From: Thermoplasmatota archaeon
GTDB lineage: Archaea > Thermoplasmatota > SW-10-69-26 > JACQPN01 > JAJPHT01
NCBI GenBank assembly: GCA_041599855.1
Contig: JBFILE010000002.1
Coordinates: 1 to 35,630 of the forward strand
Length of the DNA: 35,630 nucleotides
Reading direction: 5' to 3'
How positions within the stretch are numbered: position 1 is the stretch's first letter; each line of letters starts with the position of its first letter. A program made the translations under genes and the position numbers. Below are positions 5,564-35,630 of the stretch, in pieces. The notes under the pieces are model-generated. The model was given only the letters and a program-made list of their open reading frames with translations. It was not told the DNA's origin and searched no databases.

Positions 5564-5830
5564 TCAGAGGAGGACCGTGGTCCCGTTCCGCACGTCGAAG
5601 GCTACGTCCTGGTCGGCCACGATGCCGAGGAGGGCTTCGGCGGCCCGGAAGTCCATCCCGTGCTCCATGAGCATTGAGGCGGCCCGGTTGCCGGTGGCCG
5701 TGCGGAAGGCTCCGTCCCGGAACATTCCGAAGACGGCGAGGTCATGGCCGAAGTTCGAGGCGCTACCCGGGGCGAGGCGCTCCAGGCGGACGGCGAGAGT
5801 GTCGGTGCGGGTGGGGTGGGTCGTGTTCAT
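5564..5830 (-). CDS. hypothetical protein (88 aa), leaderless
   Basis: Track ORF 5564..5866 trimmed to ATG 5830 (MNTTHPTRT...), 7 nt downstream of the TATGGT of cassette P2. Confidence 0.65.
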   Translation of the reverse strand: MNTTHPTRTDTLAVRLERLAPGSASNFGHDLAVFGMFRDGAFRTATGNRAASMLMEHGMDFRAAEALLGIVADQDVAFDVRNGTTVLL

Positions 5831-5867
5831 AGGTGTAACCATACACGCTTGACGCTCAAGAGTCAAC
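5828..5867 (-). promoter_or_regulatory. class-1 promoter/operator cassette P2
   Basis: -35 TTGACT (5866..5861), -10 TATGGT (5843..5838), ATG 5830. The 40-mer is identical to P4. Confidence 0.7.
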
Positions 5868-5947
5868 GTCCCACGGGAGATTTCTTCGGCGGTACCGGCG
5901 GAGCGCTCGGAGGGTGACCTCGTGCCAGATGTAGCGGGCCTCGCGGA

Positions 5948-7494: not shown

Positions 7495-8322
7495 GAAGTC
7501 GAGCGGCTTACCGAGGACCTTCTTCGAGAGGTCCTGGTCCCACGTGCGGACGTGGAGGAGGTGGACGAAGATGTCGAAGACCTCGGGGCCCACGTAGATG
7601 GGATGGAGGGCCGACTCGTCGGGGCGGAGGTGGACCACGGCGGCCCCGTCGATGGCGGGGAGTTCCACGCGCTCGGCCTTCGGCTCGGCGACCTCGGTCA
7701 CGGAGTCGGCGGGCTCGGTCAAGCGGAGGATGTAGTCCGCGTTCTTGTAGGCCGCAAGCTGGAGAGCGACCTCGGCGTGCACGCCCGAGCGGGTGGTCTT
7801 CGTGTCCAGGAGGACCGTCTCCCCCTCGATCTTGGCGATAGCGTCGAAGCTCCCGGCGTACCCGAACTCGTCGTTCCAGACCGTCTCTTCCAGGAAGAGG
7901 AACTCGGGCTGATACGTGTCGAGGAAGCGGCGATAGCGCTCGATGTATGGCGCATAGTCCGGGTGGATGGGGCCGGGGTTCTCGCCCCGTGCGATGCACT
8001 CACAGAGGTCGTGGACCGCGGTGCCGTCGTCGGCGCTCTTGCCCGTGTCGCGCTGCGGGGCGTTCTTCATCCAGTCCACGGCCCCCTTCTTGCGGACCTC
8101 GTAGGCCCGGGGGTCGTCGTCGGCGGAGAGAAGCATCTGCACCAGGGCTCCGGCGTTGTCGGCGGCGAACTCTGCCACCACCTTCGCCCGCCAATACTGG
8201 AGGAAGGTCTTCGGGAGCATGTTGACCACGGAGGTGACTCCGATGGCCTTCTCCCCCGTGTCGGGGTGGACGTAGAGGCGTGCGCCTCCGCGGCGGATCG
8301 TGTTGACCTTGGGGGTGGTCAT
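7492..8322 (-). CDS. PD-(D/E)XK exonuclease (RecB/Cas4-like fold), 276 aa
   Basis: Track ORF 7492..8361 trimmed to ATG 8322, 1 nt after the upstream stop. SFDAIAKIEGETVLLDTKTT matches the D...(D/E)xK nuclease core. Confidence 0.8.
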   Translation of the reverse strand: MTTPKVNTIRRGGARLYVHPDTGEKAIGVTSVVNMLPKTFLQYWRAKVVAEFAADNAGALVQMLLSADDDPRAYEVRKKGAVDWMKNAPQRDTGKSADDGTAVHDLCECIARGENPGPIHPDYAPYIERYRRFLDTYQPEFLFLEETVWNDEFGYAGSFDAIAKIEGETVLLDTKTTRSGVHAEVALQLAAYKNADYILRLTEPADSVTEVAEPKAERVELPAIDGAAVVHLRPDESALHPIYVGPEVFDIFVHLLHVRTWDQDLSKKVLGKPLDF

Positions 8323-8323
8323 G

Positions 8324-8728
8324 TCAGAGCCACTCGCCCAGGTCGTCGGCGTCGTCGCCACTGAACGCCCCCACGTCGTCCAGGATCACGCCCTGGTCGA
8401 TCAACCACTCCACGAGGCGGGCGTAGGTCACGCCCTGCGGGGTCGTGCGGCCCGTGCCGTAGTAGCTCCCACCCGAGCGGATGAAGGCGTAGCGGAGGGT
8501 GATCGTCTCGCCCTCGTCGAACCCGAGCCCGGGCTGGCAGCGCTCGAAGGTGATGATGTCGCCATCGGTGCACGGGTCGTCGGTGCCGAAGTCTTCGAGG
8601 CTCTCCTCGATGCGGGCACGCTCGGCGGCGGCGGTCTGCTCAGCGCGGACCGAGGTGGCGGTGAGCGACGGGGGAAAGTGGGGGATATCCAGGTTGGCCC
8701 GGATGGTGATTTCGTTAAGTGATGCCAT
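8324..8728 (-). CDS. hypothetical protein (134 aa, acidic C-terminus)
   Basis: Track ORF. ATG 8728 lies 3 nt after a class-2 motif copy and has no SD. Confidence 0.75.
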   Translation of the reverse strand: MASLNEITIRANLDIPHFPPSLTATSVRAEQTAAAERARIEESLEDFGTDDPCTDGDIITFERCQPGLGFDEGETITLRYAFIRSGGSYYGTGRTTPQGVTYARLVEWLIDQGVILDDVGAFSGDDADDLGEWL

Positions 8729-8731
8729 GGG

Positions 8732-8764
8732 GGAGGTGTCGGCCCCCCACGGGCCCCGTGCTCA
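8732..8764 (-). promoter_or_regulatory. class-2 bipartite motif, copy c
   Basis: TGAGCAC-N14-GCCGACACCTCC, then 3 nt, then ATG 8728. The TGA is the stop of 8762..9328. Confidence 0.55.
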
Positions 8765-9328
8765 GGGCTTGAGTGCTTCGCGAAGCTCGCGCACGTCGGC
8801 GGCTAGCTCGCGCACTGCATCCACGGCGGCCTTACGCTCTGCGAGGCTCGACCCATGAGCCTGGACAGTCGCCAGGGCCACGGCCTCACGCGCCCTACGG
8901 ATGGCGGCGAGGAGGGAATCCGGCGGGCCCAGGCCGACCTCGCGGGCGCGGCTAATCAGGTTCGCCCGGGCGGCCTCGATACGCTCACGAGGGGAGACGA
9001 TGCGGAGCCCCGCGGCTTGAAGCTCCTCAGGCGTGAGGGTCTCGCGGAGGAGGTTCCCCACGTGGTAGCGGAGGCCGTTCTTCACGGCGGCCAGCGCGTC
9101 CTCGTCCACGCCTGAGGCCTCGTACACGGCGCTCATGACCTGGCGGTACTCCCAGGAGCGGCCAGCGGGGTCATCGTACCCCATCCGGAGGCGTACCACC
9201 TGGGCGGCCATCTCCCGGAGGATTTCCGAGGAGGGCTTAGCGGCGTAGGCCTGGATGAGGCGCGTTATCAGGTTCGCCACGTCGGCCATGGGCGGGAGGG
9301 TAGTCCCCCCGCCCATGCTCGGCGTCAT
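8762..9328 (-). CDS. hypothetical helical protein (188 aa)
   Basis: Track ORF 8762..9433 trimmed to ATG 9328, which overlaps the TGA of the upstream gene by 1 nt (TGATG). Confidence 0.7.
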   Translation of the reverse strand: MTPSMGGGTTLPPMADVANLITRLIQAYAAKPSSEILREMAAQVVRLRMGYDDPAGRSWEYRQVMSAVYEASGVDEDALAAVKNGLRYHVGNLLRETLTPEELQAAGLRIVSPRERIEAARANLISRAREVGLGPPDSLLAAIRRAREAVALATVQAHGSSLAERKAAVDAVRELAADVRELREALKP

Positions 9329-10092
9329 CACTGCTCTACCTTGAAATCGGAGGCGCACTCTGAGCACGTAATCCCGCCCGCTTCCAGGACAGCGGCCGAG
9401 GCCCGGATGATGCGGGGCTCCTCGCACGAGCACGTGGCCTTCAGGTTCGAGCGGGAGGCGGGCTTCTTCGGCGTCTTCGGGAGGTCGGGGTTCTCCCCGT
9501 TGCCCTTCGTGCCGCCCTTGCCGGTCACGAGGCCGAGGCGCTCGAAGGTATCGAGGTGGGCGTGAATGGCCTTATCCAGGGCCTCTATCACCTTGGCGTG
9601 CTTCTTGATCGTGTCCTCACGGAGGACGACGGCGGAGAAGCCGATCGAGACATCGGGGGACTGGCCCTCGGGCCACTCCATGCCAAGCTCCTCGGCCAGG
9701 GCCACGAACTTCTGATTATGGTAGCGGAAGCCCCTAGAGGTGTCCTGCACGCCCCGCACGACCGCGAGAGCGTGGACCGCTTCGTGGACCATGGTGGCGA
9801 AGGTGTCGGTCGCCCCGCACGCCAAGCGCTCGCCTGCGATGAAGATTTCCGGGAGGCGGCCAGCCTCATCGGTCACGGTGCCATCCTGGCGGAGGACCCA
9901 GCGGTCGGCCCCGTAGTGGCCCCACTTCGCCCCTCTGCCCATGAGGCCGGTCCCGGTGATGAAGAGGACCTCGGGGAGGTCGGGGTGGGCCTTGCGGAGG
10001 GAGGCGTAAGCCTTCTCCATGGCCTTGACGACGGTGGAGCCTGCCATACCTTCGAGGTTAGCGACCTTGCGGGGAGCGGTTGCGGTTGTCAT
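9328..10092 (-). CDS. SprT-like zinc metalloprotease-domain protein (254 aa), leaderless
   Basis: Track ORF 9328..10197 trimmed to ATG 10092, 7 nt downstream of the TATGGT of cassette P3. HEAVHAL (HExxH) motif and a C-terminal CSC...CSEC zinc ribbon. Confidence 0.8.
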   Translation of the reverse strand: MTTATAPRKVANLEGMAGSTVVKAMEKAYASLRKAHPDLPEVLFITGTGLMGRGAKWGHYGADRWVLRQDGTVTDEAGRLPEIFIAGERLACGATDTFATMVHEAVHALAVVRGVQDTSRGFRYHNQKFVALAEELGMEWPEGQSPDVSIGFSAVVLREDTIKKHAKVIEALDKAIHAHLDTFERLGLVTGKGGTKGNGENPDLPKTPKKPASRSNLKATCSCEEPRIIRASAAVLEAGGITCSECASDFKVEQ

Positions 10093-10172: not shown

Positions 10173-10222
10173 TCGGCCCTAGGTTCGCTCGGAGCAAATC
10201 CGAGTCTCAGCGGGCGGGGGGT

Positions 10223-27936: not shown

Positions 27937-29604
27937 TCAGGCGGCGGGGGACACTACGAAGGACGGCCCGGCGGGCGTGACATCGGCGGAGCGCTTGCTC
28001 TCCTGGACCACGGGCCCAGGGAGCGGGCCCTCCACCTTGAGGATGGCCCAGAGCACGCTTAGGAGGGAGACCGAGCCCCCAAACGTCACGGCCCCCAGCG
28101 ATGCGAGGGTGGCCAGGAGGGCCAGGGATGCGGAGCCCCCGAGCGTCGAAGCCCCCGAAGCCCCGAGGGGGGCCAGGCGGCCGAGGACGGCGGAGCCCCC
28201 GAAGGTAGCGGTGGCGGTGGCCAGGAGCGAGCGGGCGGCGGTGATTGCGGCCGAGCCCGAGGCGGTGAACGCCCCAGATGCGGCCAGGATGAGCGGGGCT
28301 GCCCCTAGGCTCAAGGTAGCGGAGCCCGAGGTGGTCAGGTCGCCGGAGGCGGTGAGCGGGCGAGAGGCCACGAGAGTGGCCGCTCCGGCGGTAGCCAGGG
28401 CCCCGGACGCGGTGAGCGGGCGAGAGGCCACGAGAGTGGCGGAGCCCGAGGCGGTCAGGTCCCCGGAGGCGGCGAGTGCGTGCACCTGGCGGAGGGTGGC
28501 GGAATCTCCGAATACGGCCCCGCCTGAGGCGGTGAGGAAGTGCTCGGTGGCGGCCCCGTCGATCACCAGGGCGGCCGAGCCCGAGGCGGTGAGGCTGCCC
28601 GAGGCGGTGAGCGGGGCGGTCCGGTCCAGGGTGGCGGCCCCGGTAGCCGAGACCGAGCCCGAGGCGGAGAGCGGACGCTCAGCGCTCACGGAGGCGGTGC
28701 CCGAGGTGGTCAGGTCGCCGGATGCTGCTACCGCCTGGGAGGTGCCGAGCGCTGCGGTGCCCGAGGTGGTGAGGTCGCCGGAGGCGGTGAGCGGGCGCTC
28801 TGTCACGAGGGCGGCGGTGCCCGAGGTGGCGAGGTCGCCGGATGCTGCGAGCGGGCGAGAGGCCACGATGTCGGCGGAGCCCGAGGTGGTCAGGTCGCCC
28901 GAGGCGGTGAGCGGGTGGGAGGTGGGGCCCCCTCCTGCTAGCTCCTCGGCGGTGAAGTTGTCTACGAAGGGCTGAGAGTAGAGCGAGGAGTAGTTACGCG
29001 TCAGACGAAAGCCCGTCCACGTACCTGAAGGGTAGGTGGAGTCGGTGGTCGAGACCTTCTCCACGCCATTGAGGAAGGCCGTAAGGGTGGAGCCCGAAGC
29101 CTCTAGGCGTACAGTCGCGGCGGAACCCGTATCGGTCCGCCAGTTATTGATACCGAGGTCTGCGAGGGGGATGAGAGCGCTGGAGGCCAAGAGGGTGGGG
29201 ACATCTCCGTCCACCCGGTAAATCTGAACCTTGATCTCCTGGACCCAGGTCCGCTCTAGTACTGCAAGGTACCCGTTGAAGGTGCCCGCCCCCATCGAGG
29301 AGGCGGAGCCTCGAACGATAGGGCCGCCTTGCTGCCCAGCAATGTTCGTGTCACTGCTCTCGGTGTCCACGAAGACATCGAGAGAGGCGGCGTGGTCGGC
29401 CACGGCCTGGGCGGTTTGGTGAATGGCCCACGAGGACCCCACGGTGGACATGTCCACCACGTTGGTGCCGTCAGAGTGCGTGTTATGAGTGTCGAGAGTG
29501 GCGACGCCCCCCGACTGAGCCCAGACCGCCCACGTTCCCGGGGCTGCACTCGCAAGGGTGCTCCCTAGGGTGTAGGCGTTGAAGTTGTCGGTGACGGTGG
29601 GCAC
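27937..29604 (-). CDS. fibre-like protein: N-terminal LamG/ConA-like domain plus about 14 tandem 20-aa repeats (555 aa)
   Basis: GTG start with GGAG 8 nt upstream. The N-terminal domain is bracketed by DNF...FVDNF. Repeats are of the type RPLTASGDLTTSGSATLVAS. The DNA shows a 60-bp periodicity, with exact 32-mers at 28349..28380 and 28409..28440. Confidence 0.8.
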   Translation of the reverse strand: MPTVTDNFNAYTLGSTLASAAPGTWAVWAQSGGVATLDTHNTHSDGTNVVDMSTVGSSWAIHQTAQAVADHAASLDVFVDTESSDTNIAGQQGGPIVRGSASSMGAGTFNGYLAVLERTWVQEIKVQIYRVDGDVPTLLASSALIPLADLGINNWRTDTGSAATVRLEASGSTLTAFLNGVEKVSTTDSTYPSGTWTGFRLTRNYSSLYSQPFVDNFTAEELAGGGPTSHPLTASGDLTTSGSADIVASRPLAASGDLATSGTAALVTERPLTASGDLTTSGTAALGTSQAVAASGDLTTSGTASVSAERPLSASGSVSATGAATLDRTAPLTASGSLTASGSAALVIDGAATEHFLTASGGAVFGDSATLRQVHALAASGDLTASGSATLVASRPLTASGALATAGAATLVASRPLTASGDLTTSGSATLSLGAAPLILAASGAFTASGSAAITAARSLLATATATFGGSAVLGRLAPLGASGASTLGGSASLALLATLASLGAVTFGGSVSLLSVLWAILKVEGPLPGPVVQESKRSADVTPAGPSFVVSPAA

Positions 29605-31783: not shown

Positions 31784-32480
31784 GGTGATGCCACTCCTCC
31801 AGGGTGCGGTCGGTCTTCTGGGAGTTGCACCTAGTGCACGCTGGAGCGAGGTTGCCCACGGTGTGGTCACCTCCGCGAGAGAGCGGGATGAGGTGCTCCA
31901 TGGTCTCGGGCGCACCTTCACAGTCGGGCCCGTTGAGGACGCACACGAAGAGTTCCCGCTCCTCCCAGGAGTCGAGAAGCTCAGCGTGGGTATGGTCGTC
32001 GGTCAAGGCTCCGGCTTCACGAGCGCGGCGGGCCGTCCCACTACGGGAGTTGAGGCCCGTCTCTCTGCGGTAGCGGTTGATGGCGGCCCGCCTACACTCG
32101 GGGGCGCAGTAGGCCACGGGGCCGGACCCACGGGGGGCCCCGAAGACGGCGGAGCACTCACGACATTCCACGGAGCGCTGGGGCTTCGCTTCGATACGAG
32201 TGGCGGCGGCGCACGCCCGAGTGCAGAAGCGCGAGTGACCCCCCCTCGGCGGCGGGGTGTAGGGCGTGGCGCACCTCTCGCACGCCCGCTGCTCCGGGGC
32301 GCGTGGGGCGCGTGGGGCCTTCTTCGGGCATGTACTGCACCTCAGGGGCCACCGTCCTCGCTTCCCCTCGGGGCGGACGGTGAGGAACGGATGGGCGCAC
32401 CTCGTGCAAGGGTGCCACCGGGCGGCCCCTGCTTCGAGGTCTCGCTCCATCTGTTCGAGCATGAGCGTGAGGTACTCCAT
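31752..32480 (-). CDS. HNH endonuclease with N-terminal multi-CxxC zinc-ribbon region (242 aa)
   Basis: C-terminal HLIPLSRGGDHTVGNLAPACTRCNSQK (HNH). Four to five CxxC pairs in the N-terminal half. GGAG SD 7 nt upstream. Overlaps the terS start by 32 nt. Confidence 0.8.
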   Translation of the reverse strand: MEYLTLMLEQMERDLEAGAARWHPCTRCAHPFLTVRPEGKRGRWPLRCSTCPKKAPRAPRAPEQRACERCATPYTPPPRGGHSRFCTRACAAATRIEAKPQRSVECRECSAVFGAPRGSGPVAYCAPECRRAAINRYRRETGLNSRSGTARRAREAGALTDDHTHAELLDSWEERELFVCVLNGPDCEGAPETMEHLIPLSRGGDHTVGNLAPACTRCNSQKTDRTLEEWHHHVQTLREPSR

Positions 32481-32515
32481 CGGCTATCTCCGGGGGGCTT
32501 GTGCGATTTCTGGCA

Positions 32516-32530
32516 CTTCAAGAGTCAAAG
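32516..32530 (-). promoter_or_regulatory. class-1 half-site S7 upstream of the HNH/terS block
   Basis: Coding strand CTTTGACTCTTGAAG shares TTGACTCTTGA with the class-1 cassettes, but no good -10 lies 17 nt downstream (CGCACA). Confidence 0.35.
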
Positions 32531-32638
32531 ATCGACTCACACTAGGGCCGCGTGTCTAGGGGTACCAGGGTGAGGAAGGGTGCCCCCTGCTCCGAACTTC
32601 TGCCGGAGCGTGCGTGCGTGCGGGTAGGCGCAGGCCCC

Positions 32639-32950
32639 CTACCCTGGTCGATGCTCGCGTAGGTCGCTGAGGGTCTTACGGGCGTGGCACGCTTCACAAA
32701 GCGCTTGCAGATTCGAGAAGGTATCGAGACCACCTGCCCATAGGGGGATGCGGTGATCCCACTCGATTTCGCGAGGGGGGAGTGGCTTCGCACACGAGGC
32801 GCACGGGGTACGTGTACCGGGGGGAGTGGATGCCCGGGCCAGCCTACGGAGGGAGGGGGAGCGGGTGATGGCGTGGGCCTGGCATCGTGGCTCTCCCGGG
32901 CGCGTGAGGCGCTGGCACACGATGCAGGGACGAGGAAGGGGTAGTCCCAT
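32639..32950 (-). CDS. HNH endonuclease (103 aa)
   Basis: Track ORF 32639..33175 trimmed to ATG 32950 (GGAGGG 8 nt upstream). CIVCQ...CQAH and CASCAKPL...EWDHRIPLWAGGLDTFSNLQALCEACHARKT. Confidence 0.75.
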   Translation of the reverse strand: MGLPLPRPCIVCQRLTRPGEPRCQAHAITRSPSLRRLARASTPPGTRTPCASCAKPLPPREIEWDHRIPLWAGGLDTFSNLQALCEACHARKTLSDLREHRPG

Positions 32951-33147
32951 GGTGGTGGCCCTCCAGGGCAGAGGCGTGAGGGCTTGACCCTGGAGGGGCC
33001 GAGAGCGGTGGGGGAGAGGGGCCCAGCGTGCGGTCCTGCATGGGGGCAACCTGCCAGAGGGAGGGCACTCTCCCCCCTTGTATAGTGTGGGCCCCCCGTG
33101 CTCACGGGACCAGGGGCGGGGGGTTCTCACGGCGAGAAGAGTGGCGG

Positions 33148-33360
33148 CGTGTTCCGCGCGTTCCGGAAGTTCCACAAACTCGGTGTTCTCTATTGCTCTT
33201 GTGGTCTTCTTCTTCTACATAGCTATAGGAGGAACGCTAAACATGGAACTCTTGGAACGCCCCTGGTAGATGGGGGTGCCCGTTTGCTAAGCCCCTGGTA
33301 GATGGGTGTTCCATGGGCGTTCCGGAAGCCTCCCCTCCACCACTCTGAGCGGTTCCGATT
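33148..33360. repeat. GGAAC/GTTCC pentamer cluster with 12-bp and 16-bp direct repeats
   Basis: GTTCC at 33151, 33160 and 33169. GGAAC at 33231, 33245 and 33254. GTTCC at 33308, 33319 and 33352. GCGTTCCGGAAG at 33158 and 33317. GCCCCTGGTAGATGGG at 33259 and 33291. Confidence 0.85.
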
Positions 33361-33427
33361 CTCACTGAGGGTGGGATGGGCTCGCTTCGCAGCGAAATGG
33401 TTGGATAACTCCAAGGTTTATTTCCAC

Positions 33428-34852
33428 TCAGGGGGCCTCGAATCGTACCCTCCCCTCCGCCTTCCCTGAGCGGTCCGAGGCCTTCGAGACGTAGATGGCC
33501 CCCACGGCCTCCCGGAGGAGCTTCTCCCGCTCCGCTGGCCCGTAGGCGGCCCAGACCTCCCCGAAGGTCTCCCCTGTCGCCCTGAAGGCCACGGAGGGAG
33601 GAATGGCGGGTCCTAGTGCCAGGAGGCGGGCGTCTAGAGCCTCAATCTGGCCCAGGATGGCGCGGCGGGCCGTTTCCGACCGGATGCCGACCAGGGAGGC
33701 CCCCAGGTCGTCCAGGGCGGCCAGGAGGTCGGCGCGGTCCTCTGAGCGCTCGTCCGTGGTCTCAATCCTCTCCGTGACATCCCAGGAGCCAAACGTCCCC
33801 AGGAAGAGGCGCTCGACCTCGGCGGCGAGGCGGTCGGCCAGAATGGCGCACCCTGGGCACGGTGGCCCTGTGTAATCGGCGGCCTTCGGGGCGGAGCACT
33901 GGAAGAGTCTATCGGTCACTCGCTCCCCGCTCGATAGGGTTCTATGGCGCGGTTTCGACCAGAGCCTATTCCCACAATGGGCACAGAATGCCAGGCCAGC
34001 GAGGTAGGGGCGCTCCCCGCTCGTAGCCCTCCGGCGTCGGACGCTCACGGCCGCCTGGAGGCGGTCGAAGGTCTCGCGATCGAGAAGGGGCTCCGCTGCG
34101 AGCACTGGGAGGCCATCATCTCCGAAGACCGTGCCCCCGTCCCTCGTGGCGTGCCCTAGGAGGCCTTTCCGGGTGAGCATGTGGCGGATGGCGGTCCTGG
34201 ACCATGCCCGCCCCTTCTGGGCGCTCTGGACGCCCTCAGCATTGAGCCACTCGGCCACGCTCTGGAGGGACGCCCCCGAGAGCGCTCGCTCGATGGCCTC
34301 TCGGAGGATGGGGGCCTCCACGGGGTCGAGTGCGAGCCAATGGCCCGCCCCCGAGGGGTGAGGAGTCGGCCTCCATCCGAATGGGCGCGCCCCGCCCTTC
34401 CATCGGCCCGTGGCGAGTAGGGCGGCCTGCCCTGCCCGGATACGCTCGCGGATGGTCGATAGCTCTAGCTCAGCGAAGACCGAGACCACGCCCGCCATGG
34501 CCTTCCCGATAGGGGTGGTCATGTCGATCGGCTCCGTAGCGCTCACGAGGGCGGTCCCGGCCCTCTCGGCCTCCTGGGCCATCGTGGCGAAGTCCCCCAC
34601 GGAGCGGGCGAGGCGGTCGAGCTTCCAGAAGACCACGGCGTCAAACTCGCCGAGGCGGGCCCTAAGGCGGCGGAGGGCGGGGCGGTCCGTGGAGCCCCCA
34701 CTCTGCCCGAGGTCCTCGAAGACATCCACAAGCTCCCACCCTCGGGCCTGGCATAGTCCAGCGATGAGGGCCCGTTGACGCTCGGGGGAGGTGGAGGAGT
34801 CGGTCTCGCGGCTGAGGCGGACGTAGCCCGCTACCCTGGTCGAATCGGCCAT
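33428..34852 (-). CDS. int: large serine recombinase (integrase), 474 aa
   Basis: N-terminal resolvase domain VAGYVRLSRETDSSTSPERQ with the catalytic Ser, a recombinase domain, zinc ribbon CAHCGNRLW...CSAPKAADYTGPPCPGC, and a C-terminal coiled coil. Confidence 0.95.
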   Translation of the reverse strand: MADSTRVAGYVRLSRETDSSTSPERQRALIAGLCQARGWELVDVFEDLGQSGGSTDRPALRRLRARLGEFDAVVFWKLDRLARSVGDFATMAQEAERAGTALVSATEPIDMTTPIGKAMAGVVSVFAELELSTIRERIRAGQAALLATGRWKGGARPFGWRPTPHPSGAGHWLALDPVEAPILREAIERALSGASLQSVAEWLNAEGVQSAQKGRAWSRTAIRHMLTRKGLLGHATRDGGTVFGDDGLPVLAAEPLLDRETFDRLQAAVSVRRRRATSGERPYLAGLAFCAHCGNRLWSKPRHRTLSSGERVTDRLFQCSAPKAADYTGPPCPGCAILADRLAAEVERLFLGTFGSWDVTERIETTDERSEDRADLLAALDDLGASLVGIRSETARRAILGQIEALDARLLALGPAIPPSVAFRATGETFGEVWAAYGPAEREKLLREAVGAIYVSKASDRSGKAEGRVRFEAP

Positions 34853-34901
34853 GGGGGAGAGTGTACCTCTCCGTCAAGCGCGGGGGTGCCTCGGGGCCCA
34901 C

Positions 34902-35054
34902 GTGCATCTGGTAGCTACGCCGGTGCATATTCGTACCGAGCCGTGCCCCGTAGTGCATCTGGTAGCTACGCCGGTGCATATTCGTACCGAGCCGTGCCCC
35001 GTAGTGCATCTGGTAGCTACGCCGGTGCGTGTTCGTACCGAGCCGTGCCGCTGG
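34902..35054. repeat. 3 x 51-bp direct tandem repeat upstream of int
   Basis: Units start at 34902, 34953 and 35004. Units 1 and 2 are identical and unit 3 diverges at its end. Each carries two GTGCAT hexamers 21 bp apart and the palindrome GTAGCTAC. Confidence 0.9.
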
Positions 35055-35067
35055 CCCCCTGCGCTCA

Positions 35068-35117
35068 GTGTGCCTTTCCGTTAAGCGCGAGGGGGCGTGC
35101 TTGACGGAAAGGGACAC
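35068..35117. repeat. 50-bp imperfect palindrome (19-bp arms, 17/19 complementary)
   Basis: GTGTGCCTTTCCGTTAAGC - 12 nt - GCTTGACGGAAAGGGACAC. The left arm plus part of the loop is duplicated at 34861..34890. Confidence 0.85.
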
Positions 35118-35122
35118 TCCCC

Positions 35123-35356
35123 TCAGGCGGGGGTGACCGTGACGGTCTCGCCCGAGGGGGTGACCATGATGGCCCCGCGGCCCTCGTGGGTGACCTCGGT
35201 AATCTGGAGGTCGATACCCCGGGCCAGGCCCAGGCGGGCGGCGATGCGGCGCTGGAGGGCGATGACTGGGGCCAGGGCGGCGGGGCCCTGCTTCACCTGG
35301 AAGGCGTCCTTCCAGGTCTCGGTGGCGGTGGTGATGGTGACTCGGTGGCTGCTCAT
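35123..35356 (-). CDS. hypothetical protein (77 aa), leaderless
   Basis: Track ORF 35123..35404 trimmed to ATG 35356 (MSSHRVTITTATE...), 7 nt downstream of the TATGGT of cassette P4. Confidence 0.65.
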   Translation of the reverse strand: MSSHRVTITTATETWKDAFQVKQGPAALAPVIALQRRIAARLGLARGIDLQITEVTHEGRGAIMVTPSGETVTVTPA

Positions 35357-35393
35357 AGGTGTAACCATACACGCTTGACGCTCAAGAGTCAAC
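35354..35393 (-). promoter_or_regulatory. class-1 promoter/operator cassette P4
   Basis: -35 TTGACT (35392..35387), -10 TATGGT (35369..35364), ATG 35356. Confidence 0.7.
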
Positions 35394-35422
35394 CTCTCCC
35401 CCAAGATTTCTCAGGGGAGAGG
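35393..35422 (-). terminator. hairpin immediately upstream of P4
   Basis: Perfect 9-bp stem CCTCTCCCC / GGGGAGAGG. The loop contains AGATTTCT. It abuts the -35 of P4. Confidence 0.6.
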
Positions 35423-35433
35423 GGAGACTCCCC

Positions 35434-35630
35434 TCAGGCGGCCACTCGGATGGCGTCGAAGGGGGTCCACTCGGTCGGATGCCCGGGGGCGCTCGTGGTG
35501 ACCGTGAGGTTTCCGTTCCCGTCCTCGAAGAGAAGCCCGGCGGTGAAGGGGCCCTCGATGGTCCCGGCGGCGGTGGTCACGATGACCTCCTGGCCTTCGG
35601 TGAGGGTGTCGGGGGTGGTGATGTCGGTGG
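35434..35630 (-). CDS. hypothetical protein, C-terminal 65 aa (start beyond right edge)
   Basis: Not in the track. Hand translation ...TDITTPDTLTEGQEVIVTTAAGTIEGPFTAGLLFEDGNGNLTVTTSAPGHPTEWTPFDAIRVAA, stop TGA 35436..35434, followed by a hairpin. Confidence 0.5.
   Translation of the reverse strand, partial: TDITTPDTLTEGQEVIVTTAAGTIEGPFTAGLLFEDGNGNLTVTTSAPGHPTEWTPFDAIRVAA

Follow-up and report, generated by a model that had tools for sequence, protein, structure and literature searches.

The 35,630-nt window analysed here is one contig (JBFILE010000002.1) of 67% GC on which every gene is read on the minus strand, and the 270-nt leader between a 77-aa gene (geneB) and a large serine integrase gene (int) carries a 52-bp imperfect dyad that is probably the ordinary phage attachment site (attP) of that integrase, with a host DNA-ligase gene as the bacterial counterpart (attB). 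A preliminary description of the leader had listed a palindrome, an additional copy of one palindrome arm with its loop, an array of three 51-bp units and a -10-like hexamer before int, and all four elements were found where it had placed them. Its suggestion that the palindrome is attP gains indirect support from a junction in the closest relative (locus L002), a 10/12 match between the dyad centre and ligase DNA, and dyads in further relatives.

The dyad is built from a 22-bp element that occurs three times in the leader (copies A, B and C, pairwise 19/22 identical) and, with up to five mismatches allowed, nowhere else in the window. By sequence comparison, arm B (GCGCTTAACGGAAAGGCACACT, 35067-35088, minus strand) would be the int-proximal (P') half-site of the proposed attP, and arm C (GTGCTTGACGGAAAGGGACACT, 35097-35118, plus strand), which begins 4 nt past the geneB stop codon, the int-distal (P) half-site; between them lies an 8-bp centre, GAGGGGGC (35089-35096), with the dyad axis at the GG of 35092/35093. 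The dyad thus spans 35067-35118, located 215-266 nt upstream of the int ATG, its 22-bp arms are complementary at 19 of 22 positions, and no local inverted repeat in the window is longer. At its best axis, 35092/35093, 18 of 24 positions are symmetric, compared with at most 11 at other axes. The 50-bp palindrome first reported at 35068-35117 is the same object, better given as 22-bp arms at 35067-35088 and 35097-35118. Together with the GCGC of arm B, the centre reads GCGCGAGGGGGC (35085-35096), which is identical at 10 of 12 positions to the host DNA for ligase motif I, GCTCGACGGGGC. As RNA, B/C forms a hairpin of -28.3 kcal/mol (z -2.7) followed by GAGCGCAGGGGG; a scan of 32400-35630 placed no intrinsic terminator, that is, no stem with a T-run, on the minus strand at 35060-35125. 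A degenerate half-site pattern returned only two chance matches in IMG/VR, on contigs of 40% GC.

The third copy, arm A (GCGCTTGACGGAGAGGTACACT, 34860-34881, minus strand), is an orphan half-site that adjoins the int start. It is followed at 34882-34889 by a shortened centre (GGGG) and the first 4 nt of a P-type arm (GTGC), with no partner arm after them; this is the additional arm-plus-loop copy reported earlier, now placed at 34860-34889 and 83% identical to 35067-35096. The 22 nt next to copy A agree with arm C at only about 9 of 22 positions (manual count). Copy A is a full P'-type half-site with a centre 4 bp shorter than that of B/C and the first 4-6 nt of the opposite arm, beyond which it diverges, so that a second integrase subunit could not bind there in register. 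Complementarity between arm C and copy A extends over 27 nt at 85%; it reaches from the stop codon of geneB to a point 4 nt short of the int ATG. As read from the sequence, unique 12-nt flanks separate copy A from the array (34890-34901) and the array from arm B (35055-35066).

The gene that the dyad adjoins (33428-34852, minus strand, 474 aa) was identified with Pfam and PHROG as a complete large serine recombinase: all three domains of such enzymes, Resolvase, Recombinase and Zn_ribbon_recom, are present, and PHROG 95 integrase is matched at E 5e-105. The best GenBank phage matches of Int reach 37% identity, a megablast search of 33000-35630 against GenBank phages returned no related DNA, and IMG/VR held no close int relative. 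Serine integrases occupy a footprint of ~50 bp composed of ~25-bp pseudo-palindromic half-sites, bind it through an Int dimer and need no accessory DNA (PMC3783163). The window dyad shows this form, being a ~50-bp imperfect dyad of ~25-bp halves, here 2 x 26 bp around a non-palindromic central GG. A GG is also found at the aligned ligase position (GCTCGACG followed by GGGC).

Comparison of a locus with and without an integrant is the standard way of reconstructing such sites (PMC10083194). In a search of a 5.8-billion-cluster database, the only protein more than 45% identical to Int was P0002 (66%), which is encoded at L002 on a 217-kb Ilumatobacteraceae metagenome contig, between thymidine kinase and pyruvate:ferredoxin oxidoreductase (POR) genes, and which is a pseudogene with an in-frame stop and thus a prophage remnant. 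Directly upstream of P0002, on the opposite strand, an ATP-dependent DNA ligase gene begins at LLDGARIQAH; its Pfam DNA_ligase_A_M match starts only from profile position 28 of the adenylation domain, and its homologs belong to Ilumatobacter and Ilumatobacteraceae. Relative to syntenic intact ligase loci (L009 and L010), the similarity of L002 ends at its position 9975, inside WKLDGAR (motif I, KLDG), so phage-derived DNA extends only ~25 nt upstream of the int ATG. Read outward from int, the junction comprises the ATG, 7 nt, TACAGT, ~12 nt of phage arm and then host GCTCGACGGGGC. Beside POR, approximately 70 nt of the ligase 5' region survives, indicating a deletion on the far side that removed part of the ligase gene along with the remainder of the prophage. 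Judged by these comparisons, L002 is an attL-type junction at ligase motif I.

In a register set by ungapped arm alignment, the window B/C dyad agrees with the L002 junction at 18/30 positions on the arm side, 10/12 in the centre and 6/30 on the far side, compared with 7/30, 10/12 and 8/30, respectively, for intact L010, whose core 12-mer begins at about position 10189; such a pattern is what would be expected of an attP aligned with an attL and an attB. In total, 15 12-mers this close to the ligase core occur in both window strands (71 kb), or ~2e-4 per position, and the position and orientation of the centre match were set in advance. Additionally, three relatives in the phage state have 50-60-bp dyads upstream of int. 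In L013 (int 38% identical; primase, polA, RNR, int, sharing the primase-polA-int synteny of the window), a 60-bp dyad at 7871-7930 holds ACCCCGTCGAGG in its centre, which again matches the ligase DNA at 10/12 positions and has the window's orientation with respect to int. In the 35-kb contig L011 (int 36% identical by BLASTP and 38% in alignment A1), where primase, polA, small genes, int and HNH follow one another as in the window, a 52-bp dyad fills the gap from just past the upstream stop codon up to the int ATG, and in L072 (int 37%) a 50-bp dyad (19/25) lies ~70 nt upstream of int. Of the integrated relatives, L065 has a major facilitator superfamily (MFS) gene ending 4 nt before the int ATG, and in L005 int is preceded by host genes and followed by a capsid gene.

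Several observations weigh against this assignment. The junction is a single one, in a decayed relative that is 66% identical, and no attL/attR pair was found for this phage, the attR being missing from L002, where the rest of the prophage is deleted. The B/C arms resemble the hairpin-plus-promoter module that follows geneA, so the palindrome could be a paralog of a terminator-type hairpin. When aligned on the shared core, the window and L013 dyad axes are 3 bp apart; dyad symmetry within attB does not favour the predicted axis, and a global alignment of the leader with ligase DNA is not significant, leaving position as the only support. The ancestral site position is that of copy A, and copy A could therefore still be the active site. 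Among serine integrases at 25-35% identity, upstream dyads were not enriched, which makes such a dyad a property of the near clade only.

Under the attP reading of B/C, two Int subunits would bind the two ~26-bp half-sites, with strand exchange at the central GG (35092/35093) or close to it. As attB, the phage would use the stretch of the host ATP-dependent DNA ligase gene that encodes motif I (W-K-L-D-G-A), and integration would disrupt the ligase. After integration, arm B, the array, copy A and int would lie at one prophage end, the int 5' end facing host DNA, and geneA, geneB, P4 (the promoter of geneB) and arm C at the other end, so that int would be cut off from P4 read-through. The predicted attL-type junction is ...AGTGTGCCTTTCCGTTAAGCGCGAGG joined to GGGCGCGG and ligase sequence, and the predicted attR-type junction is ligase sequence with GGAAGCTCGACG joined to GGGCGTGCTTGACGGAAAGGGACACT. 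As an orphan P' half-site, copy A may mark the probable ancestral place of attP, directly against the int start as in relatives. Arm A takes the place that the phage-derived arm has in the L002 junction (arm B is 18/30 identical to that arm), and the layout of C and A, from the geneB stop to near the int ATG, is the layout of the L011 dyad. In the simplest history, an ancestral attP against int would later have been split by ~207 bp, an event that would have introduced the array and left a second copy of the arm and centre.

Copy A also appears to hold the sole promoter-like signal for int. The -10-like hexamer TACACT (34860-34865, minus strand, read from the sequence) forms the outer end of arm A and lies 7 nt upstream of the int ATG; this spacing had been described correctly, it matches the geometry of three window modules with TATGGT-7 nt-ATG, and both hexamer and spacing are kept in L002 as TACAGT-7 nt-ATG. 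A full class-1 promoter of the leaderless type (TTGACT, a 17-nt spacer with CGTCAAGC, TATGGT, 7 nt, ATG) was not found at int, which shares only a TANNNT hexamer with it and has no spacer motif in register and, as stated in the preliminary description, no -35. The accompanying statement that int has no Shine-Dalgarno (SD) sequence is only partly right: the SD-like GGAGAGG contained in arm A sits 13 nt upstream of the int ATG, other window genes having GAAGG or GGAGG at 6-10 nt, and a weak, distant SD for int is conceivable.

The array between copy A and the dyad (34902-35054) comprises three tandem 51-bp units, in each of which a pair of GTGCAT/GTGCGT hexamers, spaced by 21 bp, is accompanied by the 8-bp palindrome GTAGCTAC. 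The first two units do not differ from each other, the third agrees with them at 45/51 positions, and the six hexamers alternate at 21/30 spacing as reported (starts 34902, 34923, 34953, 34974, 35004 and 35025). Tandem Repeats Finder gave a period of 51, 2.9 copies and 97% matches for 34902-35049. Neither a unit nor the whole array folds better than shuffled sequence (z -0.5 to +0.6), no Rfam match at E <= 1 was obtained on either strand of 33100-35630, and within the window GTAGCTAC and longer unit motifs occur only in the array, with GTGCAT outside it no commoner than chance predicts. A 27-mer from the array has no copy in IMG/VR. Four GTGCAT at 21/30/21 spacing gave 50 matches in JGI metagenomes, all of them unrelated GTGCAT microsatellites, and a 19-mer of the unit gave one chance match in GTDB genomes, in Chitinophaga. 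A derivation of the array or of the copy A flank from host ligase DNA was rejected because the alignments were not significant, and a third-position GC of ~65% (manual count) spoke against a coding array. Neither L011 nor L002, both relatives, carries an array in the corresponding position. In L013, three 23-bp direct repeats (GATCTGGAGGGCTC...) at 7939-7998 lie between the dyad and the int ATG, the last one supplying a GGAGG SD; they are unrelated to the array in sequence and strand and mainly repeat the L013 SD. Overall, the array looks like a recent lineage-specific tandem duplication that carries no assigned sequence-specific function, its expansion being regarded as recent because the units are near-identical.

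As a separate observation, the heptamer CTACCAG occurs on the minus strand at 33263, 33295, 34908, 34959 and 35010, three of these copies falling within the array and the other two within the direct repeats downstream of int. The five copies, compared with about four expected at random, are the only ones in both window strands; they share one orientation and lie on both sides of int.

The position of copy A raises the alternative that the active attP is centred there (~34882-34885) and that B/C is a paralogous terminator-type hairpin for geneB. The L002 junction, 25-33 nt upstream of the int ATG, falls at the copy A position, the L011 dyad adjoins the int ATG, the 27-nt complementarity of C and A at 85% makes them look like original partners, and a similar hairpin follows geneA as well. 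However, the flank of copy A (~9/22 to arm C, manual count) offers no second half-site within 26 bp, and serine integrases bind both half-sites of a ~50-bp attP (PMC3783163). The centre of copy A is 4 bp shorter and matches the ligase core at 8/12 (manual count) as against 10/12 for B/C, and the terminator scan returned no stem with a T-run at B/C, so that an active site at copy A appears quite unlikely. The same three arms could act in RNA, a reading that may coexist with an attP at B/C: in P4 read-through transcripts, arm C would pair either with B, as a local hairpin, or with A over a long range, and C:A would bury GGAGAGG and the region to -4 of the int AUG, thereby setting the Int level. 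That the right arm can pair with either left-arm copy, as the preliminary description proposed, is physically possible, folding giving -43.9 kcal/mol for the C:A duplex and -28.8 kcal/mol for C:B; the read-through whole-leader minimum free energy structure (-141.6 kcal/mol, z = -5.2) uses the C:A pairing, and forcing C:B costs ~11 kcal/mol. The right arm of the L011 dyad covers the int AUG, so start occlusion by an attP hairpin may be a family trait. On the other hand, three copies of one element fold in this way whatever their function, a leaderless int mRNA starting at the ATG would hold none of the arms, and the array adds no structure of its own (z -0.03 to +0.57). There is also no Rfam match and no orthologous leader, and hence no covariation evidence, and a switch of this kind is judged unlikely. 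A division between two sites of jobs that relatives combine in one is decidedly doubtful as well: B/C would recombine, the duplicated orphan A, which overlaps the int -10 and ribosome-binding region, would be both an auto-operator bound by Int and the long-range RNA partner of C, the Int level would report the circular state (C linked to A) or the integrated one (C at the far end), and the array would set the distance or bind a co-regulator.

The remaining explanations concern mainly the array. It is very unlikely that the 22-bp elements, the six GTGCAT hexamers or both are operators for a phage regulator, or for self-repression by Int at copy A, with the array as a platform for bound proteins through which the int promoter would be controlled in the lysogen. 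Copy A does overlap the sole -10-like hexamer of int, the 21 bp between paired hexamers correspond to ~two helical turns, and integration would not part the array from int; CTACCAG is confined to the array and the direct repeats downstream of int, and L013 too has three direct repeats (23-bp period) between dyad and int. Yet those repeats are unrelated in sequence and strand and are mainly the SD of L013, and no DNA-binding protein was identified nearby, geneB being an ORFan with a low-confidence model. Apart from the one heptamer shared with the gap between int and the first HNH gene, the array motifs occur nowhere else in the window, the IMG/VR, JGI metagenome and GTDB scans found no related array, and near-identical units point to recent duplication instead of maintained sites. 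The chances are about even that the array is a neutral variable-number tandem repeat, or a copy number created by assembly, and has no role. The identity of units 1 and 2 with 45/51 matches in unit 3, the lack of any structure, homology or motif signal and the absence of an array here in L011 and L002 argue for neutrality, but the array lies exactly between the proposed attP and the int start, where regulatory DNA is expected.

On the minus strand the gene order of the window is geneA, P4, geneB, the leader, int and two HNH genes, followed by further unannotated open reading frames (ORFs), a Toprim/D5 primase-helicase gene and polA. Both window ends cut through genes, a family-A DNA polymerase gene at the start and the small geneA at the end, and no overlap joins them, which makes the window a fragment and no closed circle. 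We infer that the contig is part of a temperate phage with an Acidimicrobiia (Ilumatobacteraceae-like) host. At the window start (1-1514), a 446-aa plus-strand ORF at 174-1514, which has no Pfam match, looks like a shadow of the minus-strand family-A DNA polymerase gene (KIAKGVGFGKVYGGG...). Tandem repeats with periods of 60 and 120 bp (67-80% matches) were noted at 28319-28915 within a 555-aa ORF (27937-29604), where the local GC rises to 74%; this ORF probably encodes a repetitive structural (fibre-like) protein.

The gene upstream of the leader, geneB (35123-35356, minus strand), is an ORFan: its 77-aa product has no Pfam or PHROG match, and exhaustive HMMER searches returned two small homologs only. 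On the 3.7-kb contig L068, what comes after the homolog is not int but further small genes, and in L112 the contig ends 60 nt after the homolog. The AlphaFold2 model of geneB (pLDDT 57) was too poor for a fold search, and geneA and geneB show no detectable paralogy at the protein level. Before geneB, a scan located P4, a class-1 promoter with TTGACT-17-TATGGT at 35364-35392 (minus strand) and 7 nt to the geneB ATG. The class-1 module, GTTGACTCTTGAGCGTCAAGCGTGTATGGTTACAC-YY-ATG, occurs three times in the window (~2110-2190, ~5810-5890 and 35356-35392, minus strand), before three different genes; the modules, the first two lying at about 2151 and 5847, are about 45 nt long and near-identical (GTTGACTCTTGAGCGTCAAGCGTGTATGGTTACACCTATG), and L068 has three of them and L112 a variant. 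Since the proteins encoded after the second ATG differ, the common ATGGTTACACCT is a promoter/start element and not coding. Each module has a dyad, TTGAC-N8-GTCAA, across the -35 and spacer that looks like an operator. Two class-1 promoter patterns gave no matches in IMG/VR.

Downstream of geneA, a hairpin at 35393-35422 (minus strand) folds at -33 kcal/mol (z -3.2). This element (around 35385-35430) resembles the B/C palindrome, lacks the ligase-like centre and has a right arm that enters the P4 -35; the att-arm hexamer TACACT/CACACT corresponds to TTGACT in the geneA hairpin, where it acts as the P4 -35. In the orthologous L068 hairpin the arms differ in sequence and still pair. On the other side of int, the comparatively AT-rich int-HNH gap (33176-33427), which was the other attP candidate of the preliminary description, contains 29-nt direct repeats at 33252-33280 and 33284-33312 (83% identical) and a 13-nt inverted repeat, with an RNA folding z of -1.7. 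This gap could be a cos site or late-promoter region instead of attP. A second palindrome, of 44 bp, was also seen downstream of int in L013 (9583-9626).

Two further loci were considered as motif-I junctions and rejected. In L070 the ligase gene is frameshifted, and in L008 the ligase is truncated elsewhere, by a different polA-bearing element. The L008 segment (7645-10000), from an Ilumatobacteraceae metagenome-assembled genome, has the same ligase gene without its N-terminal domain, and tblastx matched nothing in the window to the different polA-bearing phage-like remnant between ligase and POR. Insertions may recur in the interval between POR and ligase.

In its form, the window dyad is like known attP sites of large serine integrases, a ~50-bp imperfect dyad of two ~25-bp half-sites beside int (PMC3783163, PMC10083194); phiC31, Bxb1 and the A118/LI family are examples. 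A non-palindromic central dinucleotide, a short core common to attB and an attB in a conserved host gene would be further likenesses. Unlike known serine-integrase attP sites, the leader has an extra orphan half-site against the int start and a 3 x 51-bp array between the predicted attP dyad and int. To our knowledge, motif I of ATP-dependent DNA ligase has not been described as an integrase target; the main text of PMC10083194 does not name ligase among target genes.

The leader also recalls the res sites of Tn3 and gamma-delta in that several recombinase-binding elements would lie in the leader of the recombinase gene. Binding of resolvase at res also represses the recombinase promoter, and the same logic would apply if Int binds copy A. 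Unlike res, which has three dyad subsites at defined spacing, the leader has one dyad and a lone half-site, the array units do not resemble the half-site, and the enzyme is a large integrase and not a resolvase. In lambda (sib retroregulation) and in mycobacteriophage BPs (integration-dependent immunity), integration parts int from a control element upstream or downstream of it, because attP is placed between int and an expression signal linked to it. The proposed attP similarly lies between int and P4/geneB, so that integration would rewire int expression; lambda and BPs differ in using tyrosine integrases and in acting through an RNase III site or a truncated repressor.

Overall, the element that the evidence supports is a further, probable attP of a well-known kind, with the switch and the array function unproven. 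If confirmed, it would give the large serine integrase of an uncultured Acidimicrobiia phage a new attP/attB pair, with the highly conserved motif-I coding sequence of ATP-dependent DNA ligase as the candidate target. Such attP/attB pairs are raw material for recombinase toolkits (PMC10083194). Additionally, the ligase target would assign a host to a phage contig that is otherwise an orphan. With its orphan half-site over the int start and the stronger C:A pairing, the leader would make a case, at present a conjecture, for a serine integrase that senses its own integration state.

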